Shown piece by piece: positions 5,848 through 58,058 of a stretch of DNA of 64,000 nucleotides. A program made the position numbers and the translations under genes. Each line of letters starts with the position of its first letter. The first letter of the stretch is position 1. The notes below the pieces were generated by a model, which was given only the letters and a program-made list of their open reading frames with translations, made no database searches and was not told the DNA's origin. The stretch is taken from positions 1,665,972 to 1,729,971 of the forward strand of contig OZ241847.1 in assembly GCA_965202915.1 (NCBI GenBank). Reading direction: 5' to 3'. The DNA is from Gammaproteobacteria bacterium. GTDB taxonomy: Bacteria > Pseudomonadota > Gammaproteobacteria > Eutrophobiales > Eutrophobiaceae.

Positions 5848-7062
5848 GTGTCTATACTGGTAAAAATTGCCGATCTGGATCTGAATAATAAAACGGTACT
5901 CATCCGGGAAGATTATAATGTGCCGCTCAGAGACGGTCGGGTTGCGGACGATACCCGCATCGTCGCCAGCCTGCCGACCCTGCGGGAGATCGGCGCCGCC
6001 GAAAACGTGAAGATCATTATCGTCGCCCACCTGGGGCGTCCGATAGAGGGTGAATATGATGCGGCCTTTTCATTGCGCCCGGTTGCGGAGTGTCTGTCGC
6101 AACACCTGGGCGAGCCCATCCCACTGCTTAAAAACTGGATCGATGGCGTTGATTTTGGCGGTCATAAGCTGGTGCTGTGTGAAAACGTCCGCTTTGAGCG
6201 GGGCGAGAAAGATAATGAAGATGCGCTGGCCCGAAAAATGGCGGCACTGTGCAATATTTACGTGAACGATGCGTTTGCCACCGCCCACCGGGTTCAGGCT
6301 TCCACTTACGGGGTCGCCAAATATACCGCGATGGCCTGCGCCGGACCGTTATTGATCTCCGAACTCAAGGCCCTGTCCAAGGGGATCAAAGACCCTGAGC
6401 GGCCGTTGGTGGCGGTCGTCGGCGGGGCCAAGATCTCCACCAAACTGGTATTGCTGGAATCACTGGTGAATATTGCCGATCAACTGATCGTAGGCGGGGG
6501 CATAGCCAATACCCTGCTCCGGGCCGCGGGGTATCATATCGGTCGCTCACTGTATGAAGCCGATCTGGTTGGGGTCGCGGAAAAGATACTGCAACGGGCT
6601 GAAACCAGGCAATGCGCGATACCCCTGCCGGTGGACGTGGTCTGTGCAAAGGAGTGCAATGAGTCCGCCGGCGCCGAGGTAAAGCCGATAGCGGCGGTCG
6701 CCGATGATGATTTGATCCTGGACGTGGGCCCTGAAACCACCGCCACCCTGGTTGATTCCCTGGCGGGCGCCAATACCATCGTATGGAACGGGCCCCTGGG
6801 GGCGTTTGAATTTGATCAATTCGGTCAGAGTACCGGCGCGATAGCCGCCGCGATAGCCGCCAGTCCGGCGTATTCGATAGCCGGCGGCGGGGACACGCTG
6901 GCGGCGGTGACAAAATACGGCGTCACCGCCGGGATTGATTATATCTCCACCGGCGGCGGGGCATTTCTGGAATTTCTGGCGGGACAAAAATTACCGGCGA
7001 TAGCGATGCTGGAGGAAGCCACCCGCGCCTGGGTGGCGATGGAGCACGGCCGGGAACTGTAA
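5848..7062 (+). CDS. pgk: Phosphoglycerate kinase.
   Basis: 404 aa from a GTG start, with Pgk hallmarks (REDYNVPL, AHRAxAS, GGGAKISTK). Confidence 0.95.
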   Translation: MSILVKIADLDLNNKTVLIREDYNVPLRDGRVADDTRIVASLPTLREIGAAENVKIIIVAHLGRPIEGEYDAAFSLRPVAECLSQHLGEPIPLLKNWIDGVDFGGHKLVLCENVRFERGEKDNEDALARKMAALCNIYVNDAFATAHRVQASTYGVAKYTAMACAGPLLISELKALSKGIKDPERPLVAVVGGAKISTKLVLLESLVNIADQLIVGGGIANTLLRAAGYHIGRSLYEADLVGVAEKILQRAETRQCAIPLPVDVVCAKECNESAGAEVKPIAAVADDDLILDVGPETTATLVDSLAGANTIVWNGPLGAFEFDQFGQSTGAIAAAIAASPAYSIAGGGDTLAAVTKYGVTAGIDYISTGGGAFLEFLAGQKLPAIAMLEEATRAWVAMEHGREL

Positions 7063-7147
7063 GCGGCGATGATCGGCGGGGCCTGGCGTTGCCGGCAAAG
7101 TCCCAGGCATTCATTATAATATTCAAACTAACAACGCGGGGAGAGCT

Positions 7148-8173
7148 ATGACGATACGACAACAACTGCAGGAGACGGCGGCGGCGCTGGTTGCCCGGGG
7201 CAAGGGCATACTCGCGATAGACGAAAGCACGCCCACGATAAAGAAACGGTTTGATGCCATCGACGTCGAATCCACCGAGCAAAATCGCAGGAGCTATCGG
7301 GATCTGCTGATCACCAACCACGGCGACGCCGAATATATCAGCGGCATGATTCTGTATGACGAAACCATCCGCCAGGCCGCCGCCGACGGCACGCCCTTCC
7401 CACGGGTATTGATGAACAAAAACATTATGCCCGGCATTAAAGTCGACAAGGGCGCAAAAGAGCTGGCCCTGCACCCGGATGAAAAGGTAACCGAAGGACT
7501 GGATGGACTGGCCGACCGATTGGCCGAATACAACGCCCTCGGCGCGAAATTTGCCAAATGGCGCGCGGTGATCACGATAGGGGACAAGCTCCCCAGCCCG
7601 GCCTGCATAGACGCCAACGCCCATGCACTCGCCCGTTACGCCGGCCTGTGCCAGGCGGCCGGGCTGGTGCCGATAGTGGAACCGGAGGTATTGATGGACG
7701 CCGACCATACCATCGAGTGCTGTTACGAGGTGACCGCAAAAACCCTGTCGACCCTGTTTAATACGTTGCGTGGCCAGGGGGTCAGCATTGAACACACCCT
7801 GTTAAAAACCAATATGGTGATCGCCGGCAAACAATGTTCAAAGCAGGCCGGCGTCGACGAGGTGGCCGCGCAAACGGTGCGCTGTTTACGGCAAAACGTA
7901 CCGGCCGAGTTGCCGGGCATCGTGTTTCTTTCCGGCGGCCAGACCGCGGTACTTGCGACCGCCCACCTTAATGCAATGAACGCCGCCCATTCCGATCTGC
8001 CCTGGCCGTTGAGTTTTTCTTATGGCCGCGCATTGCAGGAGCCCTGCTTAAAGGTCTGGGGCGGCGACGCGGCAAATATTGCGGCGGCCCAAAAGGCATT
8101 ATTGCATCGTGAGCGATGCAACAGCCTGGCCTGTCTGGGGAAATATACGGAGGACGTGGAGCAGGCGGCCTGA
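7148..8173 (+). CDS. fba: Fructose-bisphosphate aldolase, class I.
   Basis: 341 aa. GKGILAIDES, the Schiff-base lysine context and the overall length are typical of class I FBA. Confidence 0.85.
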   Translation: MTIRQQLQETAAALVARGKGILAIDESTPTIKKRFDAIDVESTEQNRRSYRDLLITNHGDAEYISGMILYDETIRQAAADGTPFPRVLMNKNIMPGIKVDKGAKELALHPDEKVTEGLDGLADRLAEYNALGAKFAKWRAVITIGDKLPSPACIDANAHALARYAGLCQAAGLVPIVEPEVLMDADHTIECCYEVTAKTLSTLFNTLRGQGVSIEHTLLKTNMVIAGKQCSKQAGVDEVAAQTVRCLRQNVPAELPGIVFLSGGQTAVLATAHLNAMNAAHSDLPWPLSFSYGRALQEPCLKVWGGDAANIAAAQKALLHRERCNSLACLGKYTEDVEQAA

Positions 8174-14572: not shown

Positions 14573-16258
14573 TTAATGTAGTAAGAAATGGACAAGAACA
14601 AGGTAATAAAGCAGGCTGAGTCCCAGCAGGCCGATGATCAGCATGAGTTTATAACTCATGGTGTTATCAAATAATCTTGAGAGCCAGACGTTATTCCAGT
14701 CTGGTCGCCAGTGATCAATATGCCGCCGTATGTGGTTGCCGCCACCAATAATCATACCGCCGATATAATCAGCACCGGCCGGAAAACACTTTCTATAGAA
14801 CCAGTCAAAATCGAGGCTGATGGTTAAAGTGCGCCGCATCCGCGGGAGCATGATAAAAAACGCAAGCCCGGCAAACAGTAATAACTGCAATTGCGCCAGT
14901 ACGTGTTCACCGGTATAGGGAATATATTCAACCGGGTAGGGCAAAAGCGAATACAGGTAATTCGGAAATATCCCCAATAACAGACATAATAATGCAAACA
15001 GGATCATTGCCAATCGCATGTTCCACGGCGGATCATCGGGTCGCAACCCGGAATCTTTGTGGAAAAATACAAGCCATGGAAATTTAATCCCGGCGTGCAG
15101 AACCGCACCCGCGGAGGCGGCCTGTAACAACAGCCATACGTACGGCATGTGTTGGTCCACCGACGCCTGGGTTATCATGGATTTGCTGACAAAGCCGGAA
15201 GTCAGGGGGAAGGAAAGAGTGGACAGGGCGCCAATGATCGCGCACAGCGCGGTAATGGGCATGGATTGTATCAATCCCCCCAAATCAGTGCATTTACGTT
15301 TGCCGGTCATATATAAGACTGAGCCGGCCGCCATCAATAACAGGGCCTTGTAAATAATATGCGCGAACGCATGGGCGGCGGTACCGTTTAACGCCATCGG
15401 GGTGCCTATGCCTATGCCGCAGATCATGAAACCGACCTGGTTCACTATGCTATAGGCCAGGATTCGACGCATATCATTTTCAAGCAATGCGTAGATTATG
15501 CCGTAGAAGATCATGAATAGTCCGATCCAGATCAGAATCTCGGCCCCGGGAAATCCCCTGATTAATACATATACGGCGGTCTTGGTGGTAAATGCGGATA
15601 AAAATACCATGCCACAGAATGAGCTTTCAGGGTAAGCATCGGCCAGCCAGGCCGATAACGGTGGCGCTCCGGCGTTCAGCAGGAAACCGATCAATATCAG
15701 CCACGAGTAATAGTGGTCAAGGTCCATCAGCGAAAACTGAATCGATTGAGTTTCGATGAATTGGGCGGCTATCCCGGTCATTAAAATGACGCCACCCAGT
15801 AAATGGATAATGATATATCGGAATCCGGCCCGACGCGATAGATCGGTGGCGGCGGACCAAATCAAGATGGTCGAACCCACCGCCATGAGCTCCCAAAAGA
15901 TAAACAGGGAAATCAAGTCACCCGCGAGCACAACCGCCATTGCCGAGCCGGCATAGATAAACGCGGCCGATAGTTCAATGGGTTTTATTTGTCTAAAACA
16001 AAAAAAAGTGCCGCCAAACACGGTCAATCCGAACACAATAAGGAACAGGCGGCTAAGCTTATCCACCACGAGAGGCTGTAATTCAAATCCCAGGTAGGAG
16101 ATCCGACAGGCGTTTTCGGGATGGAGATCGACAATGCAATATAACGCCAGAAGAGGTATAAGCAAGGCCGCGTATTTTTTTATATTACCCCTCAGTATGG
16201 CCAGCACCAGTCCGCCGACAATCAGAATCAGCCCGGGATGAATGCAGCTATACGTCAT
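14573..16258 (-). CDS. Proton-conducting membrane transporter of the MrpD/NuoL/M/N antiporter family, with a C-terminal extension.
   Basis: 561 aa, polytopic, with the conserved antiporter-like core of the family. It is the last gene of a C-D-D-x-D cluster. Confidence 0.8.
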   Translation of the reverse strand: MTYSCIHPGLILIVGGLVLAILRGNIKKYAALLIPLLALYCIVDLHPENACRISYLGFELQPLVVDKLSRLFLIVFGLTVFGGTFFCFRQIKPIELSAAFIYAGSAMAVVLAGDLISLFIFWELMAVGSTILIWSAATDLSRRAGFRYIIIHLLGGVILMTGIAAQFIETQSIQFSLMDLDHYYSWLILIGFLLNAGAPPLSAWLADAYPESSFCGMVFLSAFTTKTAVYVLIRGFPGAEILIWIGLFMIFYGIIYALLENDMRRILAYSIVNQVGFMICGIGIGTPMALNGTAAHAFAHIIYKALLLMAAGSVLYMTGKRKCTDLGGLIQSMPITALCAIIGALSTLSFPLTSGFVSKSMITQASVDQHMPYVWLLLQAASAGAVLHAGIKFPWLVFFHKDSGLRPDDPPWNMRLAMILFALLCLLLGIFPNYLYSLLPYPVEYIPYTGEHVLAQLQLLLFAGLAFFIMLPRMRRTLTISLDFDWFYRKCFPAGADYIGGMIIGGGNHIRRHIDHWRPDWNNVWLSRLFDNTMSYKLMLIIGLLGLSLLYYLVLVHFLLH

Positions 16259-50616: not shown

Positions 50617-52773
50617 ATGAAAAGAATGCTAATCAACGGCACTCAGCCTGAAGAGCTGCGTGTTGCAATGGTTGATGGTCAGCGATTATACGATCTGTAT
50701 ATCGAGTCAACCATCAGGGAACAAAAGAAAGCCAATATTTATAAAGGCCAGGTTATCCGCATTGAACCGAGTTTGGAGGCGGCGTTTATCAATTATGGCG
50801 CTGACCGCTACGGGTTTCTTCCGTTTAAGGAAATAGCCCATACCTTGTTCAAGGGTCACCAGAACGACGCCGATGACGGCAAAACTGTGGTTAAGGAAAG
50901 GCTCAGGGAAGGACAGGAATTTACCGTGCAAATAGAAAAGGAAGAGCGCGGCAACAAGGGGGCGGCCCTTACCACCTTTATCAGTTTGGCCGGTCGCTAT
51001 TTGATATTAATGCCCAATAACCCCGGTGCGGGGGGCGTATCCCGGCATATAGAGGGGAATGATCGCGTTGAAGCAAAAGAGGCGCTGAGGGTGCTTGAGT
51101 GTCCTCAGGGGATGGGAATAATTCTACGCACCGCCGGTGGCGGCAAATCATCTGAAGAGCTCCAATGGGACCTGGATTATTTGTTGCAGCTATGGAATGC
51201 AATCAAGACCGCCGCCGATTCAAAACCGGCTCCGTTCCTGATTTATCGGGAAAGTGAAACCATCATTCGCGCTATTCGAGATTATTTGAGAAAAGACATT
51301 AACGAAATATGGGTGGATGATCCGGATATTCACAAGCGCACCTATGATTTTATGAAACAGGTGATGCCACATAACCTGGAAAAACTAAAACTTTACACCG
51401 ACAGTGATCCGCTGTTCGTGCGGTATCAGATCGAAACCCAGATTGAATCGGCATTCTCCAGAGAAGTCAGACTGCCTTCCGGGGGGGCATTGATTATCGA
51501 TCATACCGAAGCGCTGACGTCCGTCGATATCAATTCGGCTCGGGCAACCGCGGGCAGTGATATTGAAGAAACTGCAATGACTACCAACCTTGAAGCCGCG
51601 GAAGAAATAGCGCGGCAGTTGCGCCTTAGAGATCTGGGCGGCTTGATCGTGATAGATTTTATCGATATGACAAGTACGCGCAATCAACGTCAAATTGAGA
51701 ATAAGATCAGGGAGCAGTTGCGCGTGGATCGGGCCCGGGTACAAATTGGTCCGATATCACGCTTTGGCTTACTGGAGATGTCACGCCAGCGCCTGCGCCT
51801 GTCCCTGGGGGAGTCCAGTCATATTGTCTGCCCCCGTTGTGACGGACAAGGCACTATCCGGGGGGTTGAATCGTTTGCTTTGGCGGTATTGCGCATCATA
51901 GAAGAACAGGCGATTAAAGATCTGACGGCGAAAGTTGTGGTGCAATTGCCTATCGATACGGCAACATTTCTATTGAATGAAAAACGCGGCATGCTGAGTG
52001 ATATTGAACATCGTCACGACATTAGTATTGTACTGACGCCCAATGCCTTGATGGCCACTCCGCATTACCGGCTGGAGCGCGTCAGACTCTCCGAATCCAA
52101 TCTTCAAGAGCATAAGAAGGCCAGTTATGAACTGCCGACTCAATCCATGGAGGAGGAAAATGACGGCACCTATACTCACCATCGCAAGCGGCAAATTGAG
52201 CAGCCTGTAATAAAACGGCCCATCCCAACAAGAATCCCGGCGCCCAATGCCGGCGAAAAAAAGAGTTTTTTGGTTAGAATCTTCAGAAAGCTGTTTGGCC
52301 TGTCTGAGGAAAATGACTCCGGCAAAAAAACTGATCGCCGCGAATACTCGGGGCGTGGACGCAGATATTCCAATAACAGCGAGCGCAGACGCAACCGAAA
52401 TCGGAGGCGGGGCCGCAGGCAAACCGGTGACGCCGTGGAGAATAAAATGCGCCACAATGATCGGACCGGGAAAGATGGACAGCGGCGCCGAGGATCAGAG
52501 ACGGGCAATAGCGAGCGATCCTCAAATCCACGCCGGGGCAGACGCGGCGGGAACCGTAGAAACAGTCGGAACACGAATCATACCGTGTCGGCAAACGAGA
52601 CTAACCCGGGTAATAAGAAACAGGACGATATGCCAACGGTAACGGCGGATCAAGATCGGTTTTATCCCTTGCCTCAAACTAATAAACCGGTTGATGCATT
52701 GGATTTACCCAAAAAAGAACTAAGCCGAACTCCATCCGTCCCAAGGGTCCAACCTTACGAAGATACTGATTAG
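50617..52773 (+). CDS. rne: Ribonuclease E.
   Basis: The N-terminal [30 protein letters not shown] and S1/catalytic domains are present, with an Arg-rich C-terminal scaffold region. A long 5' UTR (50123-50616) is typical of rne. Confidence 0.93.
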
Positions 52774-52811
52774 GACGGCGTTGCCGGCACAATCTCCGAT
52801 TTGGCACATGG

Positions 52812-54392
52812 CTAAGCGCCGGTGGCATATTCTCGAATTGCATGAAACTGAATATCCGGCCAACGTTTCATAGTAAGGTTTAAATTAACCATGGACGGGG
52901 CTAAATAGGCCAACCTATCCCTCCCATCGATGGCAAGATTATCGAGAGCTCTGTGTTTGAATAACCCCAACCGCTTGTCATCGGGACATTCTATCCAACG
53001 GGCGGCAACGGTCGGAATATTATCATAACTGCAGGTTACGCCATACTCTTCCCGCAAACGCCAGGCAACGACGTCAAACTGTAATACGCCCACTGCTCCA
53101 AGAATCAAATCATTATTATTTAATGGCTTGAACAGTTGTGCCGCGCCTTCTTCCCCAAGCTGTATCAATCCTTTATGCAATGCCTTTAATTTCAACGGGT
53201 CACGCAGGCAAATACGACGAAACAATTCCGGGGCGAAATGGGGAATGCCGGTGAAGGTTAAATGTTCGCCTTCTGTAAAGGTGTCACCGACTTGTATCGT
53301 ACCGTGATTATGCAGTCCGATAATATCACCCGGCCAGGCTTCTTGAGTTTGGCTGCGTGCTCCGGCCATGAACGTCAGGGCATTACTGATCTGCGCGTCC
53401 CGATTTAATCTGACGTGATGCAACTTCATTCCCTTTCGATATTGGCCCGAGCAAACACGTAAAAATGCAATTCGATCATGATGAGCACGATCCATATTAG
53501 CCTGGACCTTGAAAACAAAACCGGTCAACTTCGATTCATCCGGTTCAACTCTGCGCTCCTCACATTTTCTTACCAGCGGTGCCGGCGCATACGATGAGAA
53601 ATAGTCCAGCAGTTCCTTTATGCCAAGATTGTGCAACGCTGAGCCAAAAAATACCGGGGTTTGCCGTCCGGAAAGAAATTTCTTCGCATCATGTTGTTCG
53701 CAGGCCCCCAGGATCAGTTCCGTTTCTTCGCGTAATTGATTGATCTCCCCAGCCGGCATGTTCGCGTCGCTTATATCAATCGGCTCAGCATGCACCACTT
53801 TATTTTTTTTATCATAAATCCTTATAGTATTGCGGGACAAATGATAAATCCCTCCAAGTCTTTGTCCCGCGCCAATTGGCCAGGTTATCGGGACGCATTT
53901 AATATCAAGATCGCGTTCTATTTCATCGAGCAGTTCAATCGGTTCTTTTCCCTCCCGGTCCAATTTGTTGATAAAGGTGATAATCGGAGTATTGCGCAGC
54001 CGGCAAACGTCCATGAGTTTGCGTGTTCTTTGCTCCACGCCCTTTGCCAGGTCAATAACCATTAACGCCGAGTCCACTGCGGTCAAAGTACGATAGGTAT
54101 CTTCCGAAAAATCAGCATGTCCCGGGGTGTCCAGCAGGTTTATTATTTTGTCATTATATTCAAATCGCATTACCGAACTGGTAATCGAGATGCCTCGCTG
54201 TTTTTCCATGTCCATCCAATCCGAGGCGGCATGCCGTGATGATTTTTTTGCTTTTATTGTGCCTGCCGTTTGTATTGTGCCGCCGTGCAATAGCAATTGC
54301 TCAGTAACCGTGGTTTTGCCGGCGTCCGGATGGGAAATGATTGCAAACGTGCGTCTCTTGTTGATTTTATTGACAAAACTACTATCACTCAT
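52812..54392 (-). CDS. prfC: Peptide chain release factor 3.
   Basis: 526 aa with the GTPase G1 [12 protein letters not shown], and full-length similarity to RF3. Confidence 0.95.
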
Positions 54393-54498
54393 ACCGCTAA
54401 AACCCCAGTTTGTACTTAAATTTGTACTTGTTTGTTAAATTGCCCTTTCGGGGCTAAAAAGTGCGCTATTCTACCGAATAACCGCAACTCTAACTATT

Positions 54499-55398
54499 TT
54501 ACTGCTCTAAAACATCTTTCAACGTATCAATCTGCTGCTGATAGATTTCCGGCCTATCCCGCCTGAATTGCTCTAAGTTCGAGAGTTTCCATTTTACCGA
54601 TGGAAATTCCTGAAAATCATAAATCGACCAATCTGGCTCTAAACCATTAAGGCTTAGTAAAAACGCTCTATCATTTTCATTTAAACTCGTCTTTACCGTT
54701 TCGATTAATTGCAGTCTTGTGGCCTCATATTCATCGTAACTAAACTCAATCACGTTCATGCCTTCAAACTGATTTTCAAACGCCGTTCGCTGATCGATCA
54801 AATGAGGAACAAGCATTTCATGGGTCGGGCGATTACTGCTCACCAGACCCAAAATGAAGCCTTGCTTGATCTCATCGGTAAAGCCTTCATTATCCAGTAA
54901 CAGCTTTACATCAAATAAATCTCGTGGATGTTGCCTGTCCAGGGCAGCACATAACTTGCCACCATATAATTGCGCCAAGGGTACAAGCGGCATCGCACAA
55001 AACGCATCAAATTCCTCTTGAGCGGCTTCGCAAAGTGGCTTCTTATTGGAGTCACCCAGCAGGCCTCGCCCTACCATGTTTACTTCTATCTTGATGAGTA
55101 CACCGTGCTCATCCAGTTGTAATTTGCAAACCTTCTCTTTGTGTTGAACGCGTATTGACGAGCGCAACCCTTCGATACGATCTTTAATGCGAACAAGCGC
55201 CGCATTAATCCCATCAAGCGTTTCATTACGTTCAGCAATCTCGACATAGGTTAAATCGATATCAACCGACAGCCTTGGCATATCGCGCATAAAGAGATTG
55301 ATCGCCGTGCCGCCATGCATGGCAAAACATGCTTCTTTAGCTACTTCTGGCAACACATCCAAAAGCAGCCTGACCTGTTTTTTGCAGGCGTCATTCAT
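54499..55398 (-). CDS. AbiEii/AbiGii-family nucleotidyltransferase toxin (type IV TA / abortive infection).
   Basis: 299 aa. The N-terminal MHGGTAINLFMRDMPRLSVDIDLTY matches the DUF1814/AbiEii motif. Confidence 0.8.
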   Translation of the reverse strand: MNDACKKQVRLLLDVLPEVAKEACFAMHGGTAINLFMRDMPRLSVDIDLTYVEIAERNETLDGINAALVRIKDRIEGLRSSIRVQHKEKVCKLQLDEHGVLIKIEVNMVGRGLLGDSNKKPLCEAAQEEFDAFCAMPLVPLAQLYGGKLCAALDRQHPRDLFDVKLLLDNEGFTDEIKQGFILGLVSSNRPTHEMLVPHLIDQRTAFENQFEGMNVIEFSYDEYEATRLQLIETVKTSLNENDRAFLLSLNGLEPDWSIYDFQEFPSVKWKLSNLEQFRRDRPEIYQQQIDTLKDVLEQ

Positions 55399-56165
55399 GC
55401 CGCCGCCTCTAATTCCCTGGGAACGGTTATCTGGTATTTCGAGACATAGACGCCATCGCTCACGATGGCACGTTTACCTGAGCCCAAATCAACCTTATCC
55501 AGATTGATATAACCAAGCCATTCATGGCCTGCCTTATCTGCCAAATACAAAAACAGGCGCTTCACTTTGATAGAGGTGCAGGCTTCAAGTAATTTTTGTA
55601 CTGTTGCCGGCCGCAAATTATTCAAGCCTTGCATCAGCTCAAACACCTCGACAAGCGGCTGAGACTTGGGTGCCAAATATAAACATTCCATTACTGCACG
55701 AGCAGAGCCGGATATCTGCACCTTAAAACTTTTATGATCGATCTCGACCAAACCAAGATCAGGCGGCAAAAAGCTCGTCAGCTTACACTCTACGCTCAAG
55801 CCCCAATCCCGCTTTTTAAACCAAAGCGGCAAGCTCTCATCCTTACCACCAAAAAGCTGTGCCCTCTTTGTAGAAAGCTCCAAATAGTGGGATTTCCCCT
55901 GCAATGACAGTGCTGTTTTGCCCGCCGGATGCACATAGAGGCCGAGCTGAGACTGCAAAGCATAGATGCCCCCCAAATAGTCCACTTGATCACCATGGCG
56001 TATCAGAGCACCCGTGCCGATAGAATCAAACCACTGGCTTTTCTTGTACTGTTTTTGCAGATCGAGGCTATAGCCCTGTTCTGTCAACCATGCGGAAGAG
56101 AGCACTATGCCCGAAGGCTGAGTGCTAAGCAGAGTGTTTAATTTTGACTCTCTCTCGGTATTCAT
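55395..56165 (-). CDS. AbiEi-family antitoxin/transcriptional regulator.
   Basis: 256 aa. The N-terminal winged-HTH pattern LLSTQPSGIVLSSAWLTEQGYS...YKKSQWFDSIGTGALI is typical of AbiEi. It overlaps AbiEii by 4 bp. Confidence 0.7.
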   Translation of the reverse strand: MNTERESKLNTLLSTQPSGIVLSSAWLTEQGYSLDLQKQYKKSQWFDSIGTGALIRHGDQVDYLGGIYALQSQLGLYVHPAGKTALSLQGKSHYLELSTKRAQLFGGKDESLPLWFKKRDWGLSVECKLTSFLPPDLGLVEIDHKSFKVQISGSARAVMECLYLAPKSQPLVEVFELMQGLNNLRPATVQKLLEACTSIKVKRLFLYLADKAGHEWLGYINLDKVDLGSGKRAIVSDGVYVSKYQITVPRELEAAA

Positions 56166-56507
56166 AATCCCAATATATCTATTTTTTTAAACTAAATCAA
56201 CGAAAAGGTTTATATTATCTACTATTTAGGAATTTTAAATACCTTAATATAATATTTTTTAAACACAAAAGAACGACACTCGTGTCAACATTGTTTTAGC
56301 CCTTGTGACAGACCAGGCGCAAGGGCTGTTTTGGGGGCTCAGTTTGGCCCGGCAGGAGACAATACAAGCAGAAGCATGAAGCGATTAAGGCCAAAAGGCC
56401 GATGAGCCCCAAAAGCGCGAACGAGTCAATATGGCAACCTGAGACAGGTTGTAACGATTTGAATTTAATATAGTTAATGTCTTTTGGTGACTCTGGTTGT
56501 CTTATTG

Positions 56508-56567
56508 GTCTGAATCGGGATGGGAAATGATTGCAAACGTGCGGCGCTTTGATAACTTTTCAGTTAT
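56508..56567 (-). pseudogene. Displaced 5' fragment of prfC (codons ~8-26), left at the far side of the AbiE insertion.
   Basis: The minus-strand translation ...[19 protein letters not shown] matches the prfC N-terminus [19 protein letters not shown]. At the nucleotide level ggatgggaaatgattgcaaacgtgcg is shared with 54328-54353. Confidence 0.7.
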
Positions 56568-56597
56568 CGGGTGGGATAATCGAGTCCTGAGTACAGG

Positions 56598-57305
56598 TTA
56601 AGTTATCAGATGTTTCATCTGTTTCACGGCTTCATACATACCGACAAATACAGCCCTGGCAACAATGCTGTGACCGATATTGAGTTCCGTGAGCCCGGGA
56701 ATCGACGCAATTTGTGCAATGTTTTCATAATGCAATCCGTGCCCGGCATGGACGTTTAGGCCCAAATCATTGCCAACAACAACGCCGGCCTTGATCTTTT
56801 CCAATTCCATCGCGATCTCCGAATCGTCGGCATCGGCAAAATGTCCGGTATGCAGTTCGATACAGGGCGCACCGACCTCCGCCGCCGCCTCCAACTGCTC
56901 GGGCACGGCGTCAATAAAAAGTGATACCCTTATCCCCGCGTCGGCAAGTCTGATTGATGCATTCCTGATGGTTTCGGTTTGATTGATAACGTCAAGCCCG
57001 CCTTCGGTCGTCAGTTCCCGTCTTTTTTCAGGGACTAAACAGCAATATTGCGGTCTCATCGCTTCGGCGCACCGTATCATTTCTTCCGTTACCGCCATTT
57101 CCAAATTGATCGGGATGGTGACCGCCTGTTGCAGGTTTTTCAGGTCCGCGTCCTGGATATGGCGGCGGTCTTCGCGTAAATGCACGGTGATTGAATCAGC
57201 CCCGGCCTTCTCCGCGATCAGCGCCGCCGACACCGGATCAGGGTATTGCGTGAACCGCGCCTGTCGCAACAGGGCAACGTGATCTATATTTACCCCCAGT
57301 AACAT
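56598..57305 (-). CDS. pdxJ: Pyridoxine 5'-phosphate synthase.
   Basis: 235 aa with [17 protein letters not shown] and conserved PdxJ barrel motifs. Confidence 0.95.
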
Positions 57306-57332
57306 GATCGATGAACGTTCAACCGGGTAACG

Positions 57333-58058
57333 TCAACCCGCGCATTCAGATAAATAGGCGCTGTAGAGGCGGCGGCTGGCCAAAGGTTTATTCCCCAGAT
57401 ATATTCCGAGCACGGCCCGCATTAATGCTTTTGTTTCCGACTGGACTTTTTCATCGTTGGCGTCTATGGTTTCCTGATGTAATGCGATTAATGCCCGCCC
57501 CGATATTGCAACGTAATTACTTGAATCGGGAGGGTTGAGTAACGGCCCCGAATCATATTGATAGTAATATTGGGCATCCACGTCTATCGTGTCTCCGGCG
57601 CCTATTGGCTGATCCAAAATCAATCCATAGCCCAATGATTGCAACAGCCGCTTTTCAAAATACCGGATAATGGCGCCTTCCGGGTAATCCCTGGACAGTT
57701 TTGACAGGACGGTATCGTAGGCCGCAAATAAATCCGGGTGCGCTTCGTGTTTATGCAATAAACGGATGATTATTTCATTGATATAAAACCCGCTCATAAT
57801 TTGATGCGGTTTCCAGGTGATCATTTTTGTCTCAGGTTCAATCTGGGTAAGCGTGCCCAATTCACTGCGTATCGTCCATCCGAGTTGCAGGCGCTGATAG
57901 GGTTTGAATAAAAAACGCCGGCTGTTTGATCGACGTTTGGCGCCTTTGGCGACCAGATCGACCCGGCCATGAACCATGGAAAACACCTGTAATAACAGGC
58001 TGGTCTCCCGATAATTGCGCATGTGCAGAATATAGCAGGAGTGGGCCGGAACTTTCAT
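57333..58058 (-). CDS. recO: DNA repair protein RecO.
   Basis: 241 aa with the N-terminal OB-fold pattern ...YILHMRNYRETSLLLQVFSMVHGRVDLVAKGA. Its position between pdxJ and era is conserved. Confidence 0.9.
   Translation of the reverse strand: MKVPAHSCYILHMRNYRETSLLLQVFSMVHGRVDLVAKGAKRRSNSRRFLFKPYQRLQLGWTIRSELGTLTQIEPETKMITWKPHQIMSGFYINEIIIRLLHKHEAHPDLFAAYDTVLSKLSRDYPEGAIIRYFEKRLLQSLGYGLILDQPIGAGDTIDVDAQYYYQYDSGPLLNPPDSSNYVAISGRALIALHQETIDANDEKVQSETKALMRAVLGIYLGNKPLASRRLYSAYLSECAG

Follow-up and report, generated by a model that had tools for sequence, protein, structure and literature searches.

In SXT/R391-type ICEs (integrative and conjugative elements) the integrase gene int adjoins a displaced 5' fragment of the target gene prfC, which the element makes whole again by supplying a new 5' end. 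The insertion site of these ICEs is the 5' end of prfC (PMC2791158), tandem arrays form at this site (PMC5812530), and the 17-bp attP consensus ATcATcTCtCACCCtGA tolerates mismatches of up to 23.5% (PMC9058013); the IntSXT site work of Hochhut & Waldor 1999 enters here in the form in which these three papers cite it. Within the IntSXT (DUF4102) subgroup the integrases of phage cdt-I and of SXT fall into a single cluster that targets prfC (PMC8138268). The same 5' end of prfC is the subject of this work, in a window of 64,000 nt (the whole stretch of DNA that was analysed, from contig OZ241847.1 of the Gammaproteobacteria assembly GCA_965202915.1) where an insert with the abortive-infection gene pair abiEi/abiEii, hereafter AbiE, lies between prfC and its native upstream neighbour pdxJ.

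We consider it very probable that this 2,190-bp insert is a decayed, integrase-less remnant of a small integrative island at the 5' end of prfC in which AbiE has remained intact. The insert is framed by a direct repeat (54325-54359 versus 56515-56549, 32 of 35 nt identical) whose copies lie 2,190 nt apart with both AbiE genes intact between them. The exact 26-mer within it, CGCACGTTTGCAATCATTTCCCATCC, occurs in the window solely at 54328-54353 and 56518-56543 when up to three mismatches are allowed, and a chance control gave no match in 100 shuffles. The repeat covers the classical 17-bp attB of SXT/R391 ICEs and of E. coli Shiga toxin (Stx) prophages, as the 17-bp sites of the window read ATCATTTCCCATCC(G/C)GA and lie at the prfC codons IISHPD, that is, at the SXT-type insertion site. 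An AbiEi/AbiEii module inserted in the 5' end of prfC had already been proposed in a sequence-only reading of this DNA and is borne out by the Pfam and PADLOC assignments, the direct repeats and the empty sites of relatives; that phages integrate at prfC in E. coli, as that reading had mentioned, is documented by Stx2c and Stx1a prophage records and in the literature (PMC8138268, PMC2791158). Comparison with relatives shows that integration at the IISHPD site stranded the native first codons of prfC beside pdxJ and fused the rest of the gene to an element-borne leader and N-terminus, and that a later deletion took out int and ardA and fixed the island in place. The genes abiEi and abiEii are still intact, and prfC would be driven from the TAGAAT element promoter (~54465-54475), by read-through from abiE, or by both.

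Relatives and related loci are labelled here with L-numbers. In L167, a 2.57-Mb contig and the closest relative found (PdxJ 73% and PrfC 75% identical to the window), the gene order is lepA-lepB-rnc-era-recO-pdxJ-prfC-...-rne and the pdxJ stop overlaps the prfC ATG with no insert, while in L001, a Legionellales metagenome-assembled genome (MAG), pdxJ and prfC are separated by 41 nt, again without insert. The duplicated prfC fragment is absent from both L167 and L001, and the alignment of the pdxJ-prfC region with relatives that the sequence-only reading had suggested thereby supplied two empty sites. Direct repeats thus flank the insert in the window and the site is uninterrupted in relatives. 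In a three-way alignment of attB, attL and attR, agreement with L167 is on the pdxJ side of the core for attL and on the prfC side for attR, so that attL is composed of host DNA to the left and element DNA to the right, and attR of element DNA to the left and host DNA to the right. The PrfC search of genome contigs yielded relatives of at most 69% identity only, and gave the empty L001 and an occupied locus, L002.

On the far side of the insert a diverged copy of prfC codons ~8-26 had been described; a fragment copy is indeed present, but its homologous extent is narrower, as only 12 residues correspond, matching residues 12-23 of the resident PrfC, and the closing codons (SDQ and a stop) are element DNA. 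Its reported distance of about 30 bp from the pdxJ stop was confirmed, with an ATA codon at 56567-56565, 30 nt from that stop, which may be a mutated ATG; the 48 nt that separate the pdxJ stop from the KRR of the fragment contain no ATG, GTG or TTG. The displaced fragment (..EKLSKRRTF) resembles the native N-terminus of L167, MSSARKELLKRRTF (..KELLKRRT), whereas the resident N-terminus does not and matches the element-type M[SGA]DSNF[IVL]NEINKRRT of unrelated hosts. The resident prfC is a hybrid, in which codons 1 to ~14 come from the element and the body from about codon 23 is host DNA. Compared with other AbiE elements the window is 72-86% identical upstream of the core and 58-70% downstream, and the pattern is reversed against L167 (52% upstream, 68-77% downstream); this identity switch at the core shows directly that the resident prfC has a leader and first codons that move together with the element, in agreement with the earlier proposal of a replacement 5' end supplied by the insert. 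prfC is hence restored by a 5' coding end that belongs to the element, and the native-type fragment is shifted to the pdxJ side. The leader of ~110 nt, with its GTACAAA pair, hairpin and TAGAAT, is kept across AbiE elements in different hosts, and the GTACAAA repeats at 54409-54428 may represent arm-type integrase sites.

AbiEi, searched against metagenomes, gave 80 loci with identities of 67-94%. Among the 56 evaluable loci, those with enough downstream sequence, prfC was located downstream on the same strand in 25, and within 300 nt in 22 of these 25; AbiEi/AbiEii are 72-92% and PrfC 58-64% identical in them, with the exception of L135 (PrfC 73%, partial match). The prfC of these hosts starts, with few exceptions, in the same M[SGA]DSNF[IVL]NEINKRRT manner as that of the window. 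The idea that AbiE is always tied to prfC was rejected, and the pair is a promiscuous cassette, not specific to prfC, because it occurs in other contexts at 31 of the 56 loci. Displaced prfC fragments were detected upstream of AbiE in L099/L100, L134, L121, L146, L102, L091, L116/L117 and L138, and directly after the fragment a P4-like integrase gene or its remnant follows in L138, L091, L116/L117 and L102. Every AbiE-linked integrase seen is inactivated by stops, a frameshift, truncation or reduction to a remnant, and the sole intact integrase among the AbiE-retrieved metagenomic loci, that of L116, carries other cargo and received only a weak generic match from NCBIfam. The best full-length reference is L091, which spans 3.87 kb between cores and holds attL, int, ardA (Pfam ArdA), the structured segment, abiEi, abiEii, leader and prfC in this order. 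The metagenomic relatives thus show the parent element, which measures ~3.9 kb, with attL, an Arm-DNA-bind_3 tyrosine integrase, ardA, a structured segment of ~120 nt, abiEi-abiEii, a leader with GTACAAA repeats and the new prfC start, and attR.

No related integrase was detected by tblastn in the insert, where it would stand next to attL, or in the 64-kb window, whereas in L138, L091, L116/L117, L102, L173 and L174 the homologous position holds an integrase gene or its pseudogene. The window element, having no integrase, is therefore a remnant and not a complete member of the IntSXT-cluster prfC elements. Among the best 120 of the 947 integrase homologues, none was on a contig that equals the window genome in length, and a tblastn search of plasmids with the integrase gave only generic integrases of ~50% identity. 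The position of the crossover can be followed in L116 and L117, which are 99.6% identical up to ...TTCGCTATCATCTCGCACCC (also written ...ATCTCGCACCC) and diverge from position 15515; beyond it L117 runs on as prfC (GGATGCTGGTAAAACC) and L116 as CGATCAAGCCC... into the integrase. The pdxJ-side junction of the window is at the same position, with a similar continuation (...ATCATTTCCCATCC/CGATTCAGACC, the slash here and below marking the crossover). The uniformly inactivated AbiE-linked integrases fit a fixation driven by toxin-antitoxin (TA) cargo, and suggest that losing the island may be penalised by its TA module, which would favour fixation; for mosAT of SXT a comparable stabilising role is described (PMC2654960).

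The loss of the integrase can be traced to a junction in the attL arm. Homology of this arm to L099, L102, L091 and L116 spans ~93 nt and ends at GCCATATTGAC (56425-56435), and the attL of the window lacks the GTACAWA repeats found ahead of int in relatives. After 5 nt the arm is joined to the segment that follows ardA, with homology from 56419, which implies that int and ardA were removed by one deletion. That the island is decayed and has lost its integrase, as the first reading had concluded, thus stands, since relatives keep int beside attL and the window keeps the first ~93 nt of the arm. L099/L100 are also without int but have a different junction. A common int-less ancestor of the window and L099, which would imply mobilisation in trans, was rejected as the junctions differ, and the int deletions of the two are independent decay events. 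The left breakpoints of the window (56425-56435) and L099 (~9830) deletions lie 5 nt apart, at the palindrome GTCAtatTGAC. TTGAC is also found at the -35-like box upstream of abiEi, and microhomology may have been involved in the deletions.

The non-coding segment that adjoins this junction (56299-56419) is kept in at least nine other prfC islands, always just downstream of ardA, and shows 83-88% identity by blastn to L088, L091, L102, L090, L089, L112 and L103. It folds into a 15-bp outer stem (TTTTGGGGCTCA...TGAGCCCCCAAAA) and a second hairpin, with folding z-scores of -2.2 (RNA) and -2.9 (DNA). Compensatory changes were seen in 6 of 38 pairs, a covariation test that is underpowered with ten sequences of 83% mean identity. 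No Rfam family matched the segment; an Rfam scan of 52000-58000 returned only a sub-threshold plant microRNA match at 56424-56509, which was set aside as chance. The segment may be a terminator of ardA, a site resembling an origin of transfer (oriT) or a single-strand promoter.

Among the known systems at prfC, SXT/R391 is the closer classical parallel than the E. coli prfC phages. The ICEs use the same 17-bp target as the window element, line up in tandem there, and some carry abiEi-ii or other stabilising TA modules. They differ in size (~100 kb versus 2.2 kb for the window element and ~3.9 kb for its parent type), and the window element is without xis, setCD/setR, relaxase, type IV secretion genes and integrase. 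As the 2.19-kb insert holds abiEi and abiEii only and nothing of the SXT/R391 backbone, it is not an ICE. The Stx1a/Stx2c prophages and cdt-I share the crossover (IISHP/) with the window element. The Stx2c/Stx1a prophage records (LC727877 and others) start with an E. coli prfC 5' fragment ending in /NN and a stop codon and have an annotated 14-bp duplication, CATTATTTCTCACC; an arm-domain integrase comes directly after this displaced native fragment, GTACAWA repeats occur in both arms and precede int, and the right end bears GTACATA repeats and, as in the window element, a new prfC start codon and N-terminus (../DAGKT). In the Stx2c prophage the GTACATA repeats stand ahead of the new prfC start in a manner similar to the window leader. 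The intact integrase of L116 is 50.6% identical over its full length to the Stx2c and Stx1a prophage integrases. These prophages are functional 50-kb elements with intact int, while the window element has a two-gene AbiE cargo and no phage genes. The attL architecture was also seen outside the metagenomic loci, in two cultured bacteria: L173 (Vibrio diabolicus JAMQRO010000033, 8715-19209) has a native prfC fragment, GTACA repeats and int with type I restriction-modification cargo, and L174 (Alcanivorax sp. IL3 CP179933, 8750-19239) has the same attL architecture in a prophage-like region.

Certain observations weigh against an origin by site-specific integration or limit how far it can be taken. 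Both repeat copies have host-type third codon positions across all 26 nt, which would not be expected of a single crossover if the attP were a typical one, so that a matching attP or a later gene conversion is needed. The displaced fragment has no start codon, and its identity as the native 5' end rests on its position and a modest similarity to L167. The window has no integrase that would tie the event to a specific enzyme, and the integrase of related loci was compared with Stx-prophage integrases and with clustering from the literature, not with IntSXT itself. The use of the prfC promoter and the activity of AbiE are both inferred from sequence.

The alternative that survives best, though we regard it as improbable, is that the int-less 2.2-kb unit is still mobile, resembling a cis-mobilizable element (CIME) moved in trans by an IntSXT-cluster integrase of a co-resident ICE, phage or island, with the structured segment possibly acting as an oriT-like site. 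CIMEs, known from Streptococcus thermophilus, and other integrase-less remnants hold cargo between attL and attR without a recombinase of their own, as the window element does, and what a CIME requires is partly present in the window, where both cores are intact and identical over 26 nt and the attL arm stops short of the GTACAWA repeats. Other hosts also have int-less AbiE units with a prfC fragment (L099/L100 of 2.05 kb and L134 of 2.3 kb), and the structured segment is conserved beside ardA, a gene typical of conjugative leading regions. However, the int deletions of the window and L099 differ in their junctions, as in independent decay and not as in copies of one int-less form; the window's deletion junction was found at no other locus examined, the deleted GTACAWA repeats are the presumed arm sites, and a related integrase is missing from the whole 64 kb. 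Unlike CIMEs the window element shows no sign of mobilisation, and its truncated attL arm and the independent junctions argue for plain decay.

It is still less credible, to the point of being very remote, that no integration took place in this lineage and that the fragment, the island and the prfC 5' block arrived together from a donor, by transformation or transduction and homologous recombination of the flanking DNA. A wide horizontal spread of the module is seen in the metagenome-derived loci L085-L164, and a simple crossover does not quite account for two copies that agree over 26 nt and both have host-type codons; yet the fragment on the pdxJ side runs on without a break into the pdxJ of the host itself and resembles the native N-terminus of the closest relative, the identity switches exactly at the core, and the structure in a donor would still stem from site-specific integration, which leaves the nature of the feature unchanged. 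Lastly, a motif-level or chance similarity through the P-loop shared by GTPases, with AbiE merely lying in a long intergenic region, is excluded: the homologous 12-residue stretch does take in the start of the G1 motif conserved in translational GTPases, but the repeat is identical at 26 of 26 nt and unique in 64 kb, lepA and era, GTPase genes of the same window, have no match to it, relatives lack the insert and the same junction recurs at many other loci.

Table 1. Coordinates of features in the window and of integrase genes in related loci
Feature	Sequence	Positions	Strand	Remarks
rne	window	50617-52773	+	
prfC	window	52812-54392	-	526 aa, full-length; Pfam GTP_EFTU, EF-G_D2, RF3_C
SXT-type 17-bp site, attR side	window	54325-54341		ATCATTTCCCATCCGGA
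attR core	window	54328-54353	-	exact 26-nt repeat, inside prfC
Element-supplied prfC leader (P' arm)	window	54393-54498	-	
Leader direct repeats (two)	window	54409-54416 and 54421-54428		AGTACAAA (GTACAAA)
Leader small hairpin	window	54442-54454		
Leader TAGAAT	window	within 54465-54475		-10-like box, conserved
abiEii	window	54499-55398	-	299 aa, intact nucleotidyltransferase toxin
abiEi	window	55395-56165	-	256 aa, intact antitoxin and transcriptional regulator
AT-rich abiEi promoter/putative operator region	window	56157-56292	-	from promoter scan and conservation
Palindrome IR2	window	56157-56171		GGGATTATGAATACC; over abiEi start codon
abiEi -10 TATATT	window	56172-56177		
abiEi -35 TTGATT	window	56195-56200		
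Palindrome IR1	window	56229-56243		GGTATTTAAAATTCC
Upstream TTGACA	window	within 56283-56292		
Structured non-coding segment	window	56299-56419	-	between ardA and abiEi in full-length elements
Deletion junction	window	56420-56424	-	int and ardA missing (~1.7 kb in L091)
attL-arm remnant, integrase-proximal	window	56425-56517	-	CGATTCAGACCAATAAGACA...GCCATATTGAC; aligns with L099, L102, L091, L116 arms
SXT-type 17-bp site, attL side	window	56515-56531		ATCATTTCCCATCCCGA
attL core	window	56518-56543	-	second exact 26-nt copy, beside pdxJ
Displaced native prfC 5' end, pseudogene fragment	window	56544-56597	-	from translation; likeness to L167 N-terminus
pdxJ	window	56598-57305	-	Pfam PdxJ, 5e-99; native upstream neighbour of prfC
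Repeat sequence, alternative writing				ATCATNTCNCANCC
Integrase	L138	324-1540		full-length gene, two in-frame stops
Integrase	L091	5462-6708		frameshifted
Integrase	L116/L117	11515-12312		truncated at residue 264
Integrase	L102	8753-8983		77-residue remnant
Integrase, intact	L116	15717-16937		406 aa; Arm-DNA-bind_3, Phage_int_M, Phage_integrase

The whole run of genes from prfC through rnc, including recO and era beyond pdxJ, lies on the minus strand, and the two AbiE genes are adjacent and bicistronic with an overlap of 4 nt. AbiEi combines a winged helix-turn-helix N-domain (Pfam PF17194, AbiEi_3_N) with a C-terminal antitoxin domain (PF11459, AbiEi_3) and is encoded next to the DUF1814 nucleotidyltransferase AbiEii (PF08843, E 1.5e-33, profile positions 1-231 of 238). 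PADLOC assigned both to the expected AbiE models (AbiEi with 282 bits, E 9.2e-85; AbiEii with 385 bits, E 7.5e-116), while no NCBIfam model matched AbiEi or AbiEii and a search of viral contigs with the AbiEi alignment gave no match. The pair most likely acts as a type IV TA/abortive-infection module that originally stabilised the island. The comparison is with the AbiE systems of Lactococcus (AbiE) and Streptococcus agalactiae (AbiEi/AbiEii), for which the type IV TA/abortive-infection role reportedly goes back to Dy et al. 2014 and Hampton et al. 2018. The window pair shares with them the overlapping bicistronic operon, the same domains (AbiEi_3_N and AbiEi_3, and DUF1814/nucleotidyltransferase in AbiEii) and paired inverted repeats at the promoter, and differs in that its putative operator repeats have another sequence.

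Between abiEi and pdxJ the non-coding stretch amounts to 432 nt, and the AT-rich part of the insert remarked on earlier is real (GC content 0.30 at 56100-56299) and corresponds to a conserved promoter and putative operator region of abiEi. Two palindromes are kept as GGTAyTTAAArTACC and GGTAyyATGArTACC in 14 elements and flank a sigma-70-like promoter; as AbiEi autoregulation is known, they are candidate AbiEi operators. In SRR23871860, one of two read sets with the strain, the assembly breaks inside abiEi: L084, on the pdxJ side, ends at 7569 at AbiEi residue 143 and L082, on the prfC side, begins inside the AbiEi C-terminus. This break may be due to low coverage, or the strain may be heterogeneous at the island. 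In L002, a Wenzhouxiangella MAG, AbiEi (71%) and AbiEii (63%) at 6105-8000 immediately precede a prfC whose leader is of the element type, nothing is left of a displaced prfC fragment, and sdaA is 130 nt upstream of abiEi; this is a further-decayed state than that of the window.

The cargo found at prfC in related loci is varied. L116 has three successive units, which carry AbiE, ArdA with a divergent AbiE pair, and an IetA-like ATPase, respectively, in L088 ardA-abiE is preceded by a type III restriction enzyme and PDC-S06, L091 has a pair of helix-turn-helix and Fic proteins, and L146 MerR/MerC. From these arrangements prfC appears to be a hotspot in these marine bacteria at which small islands pile up in tandem. 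L116 and L117 also form a natural occupied/unoccupied pair, in which the extra element has the 406-aa integrase, a 172-aa open reading frame and an IetA-like anti-phage ATPase. A more speculative idea, which we hold to be unlikely, is that the ~3.9-kb units of int, ardA, structured segment and abiEi/ii constitute an undescribed family of minimal prfC islands that compete for, or hitch on, the attB of SXT/R391 and Stx/cdt elements, with the structured segment at 56299-56419 as an oriT-like site or single-strand promoter for conjugative mobilisation and AbiE locking the island in. If this were true, the lock-in by AbiE would account for the finding that all the AbiE-linked integrases seen are dead, and the window remnant would keep two functional parts of the hitcher, a transfer or regulatory segment and an addiction/defence module.

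A decayed prfC island with intact AbiE explains the 2.2-kb gap in the otherwise conserved pdxJ-prfC junction of this genome. Current understanding is not overturned by it, as the kind of event is ordinary and already known. The gene for release factor 3 (RF3) in this bacterium is a hybrid that owes its start, and probably its promoter, to a mobile element. The prfC site of SXT/R391 is also used by very small defence/addiction islands, in uncultured marine Gammaproteobacteria and in Vibrio diabolicus, and such islands stack in tandem and then lose their integrases. This bears on the effect that an occupied prfC site has on incoming SXT-type resistance ICEs and on how toxin-antitoxin cargo fixes islands in genomes.

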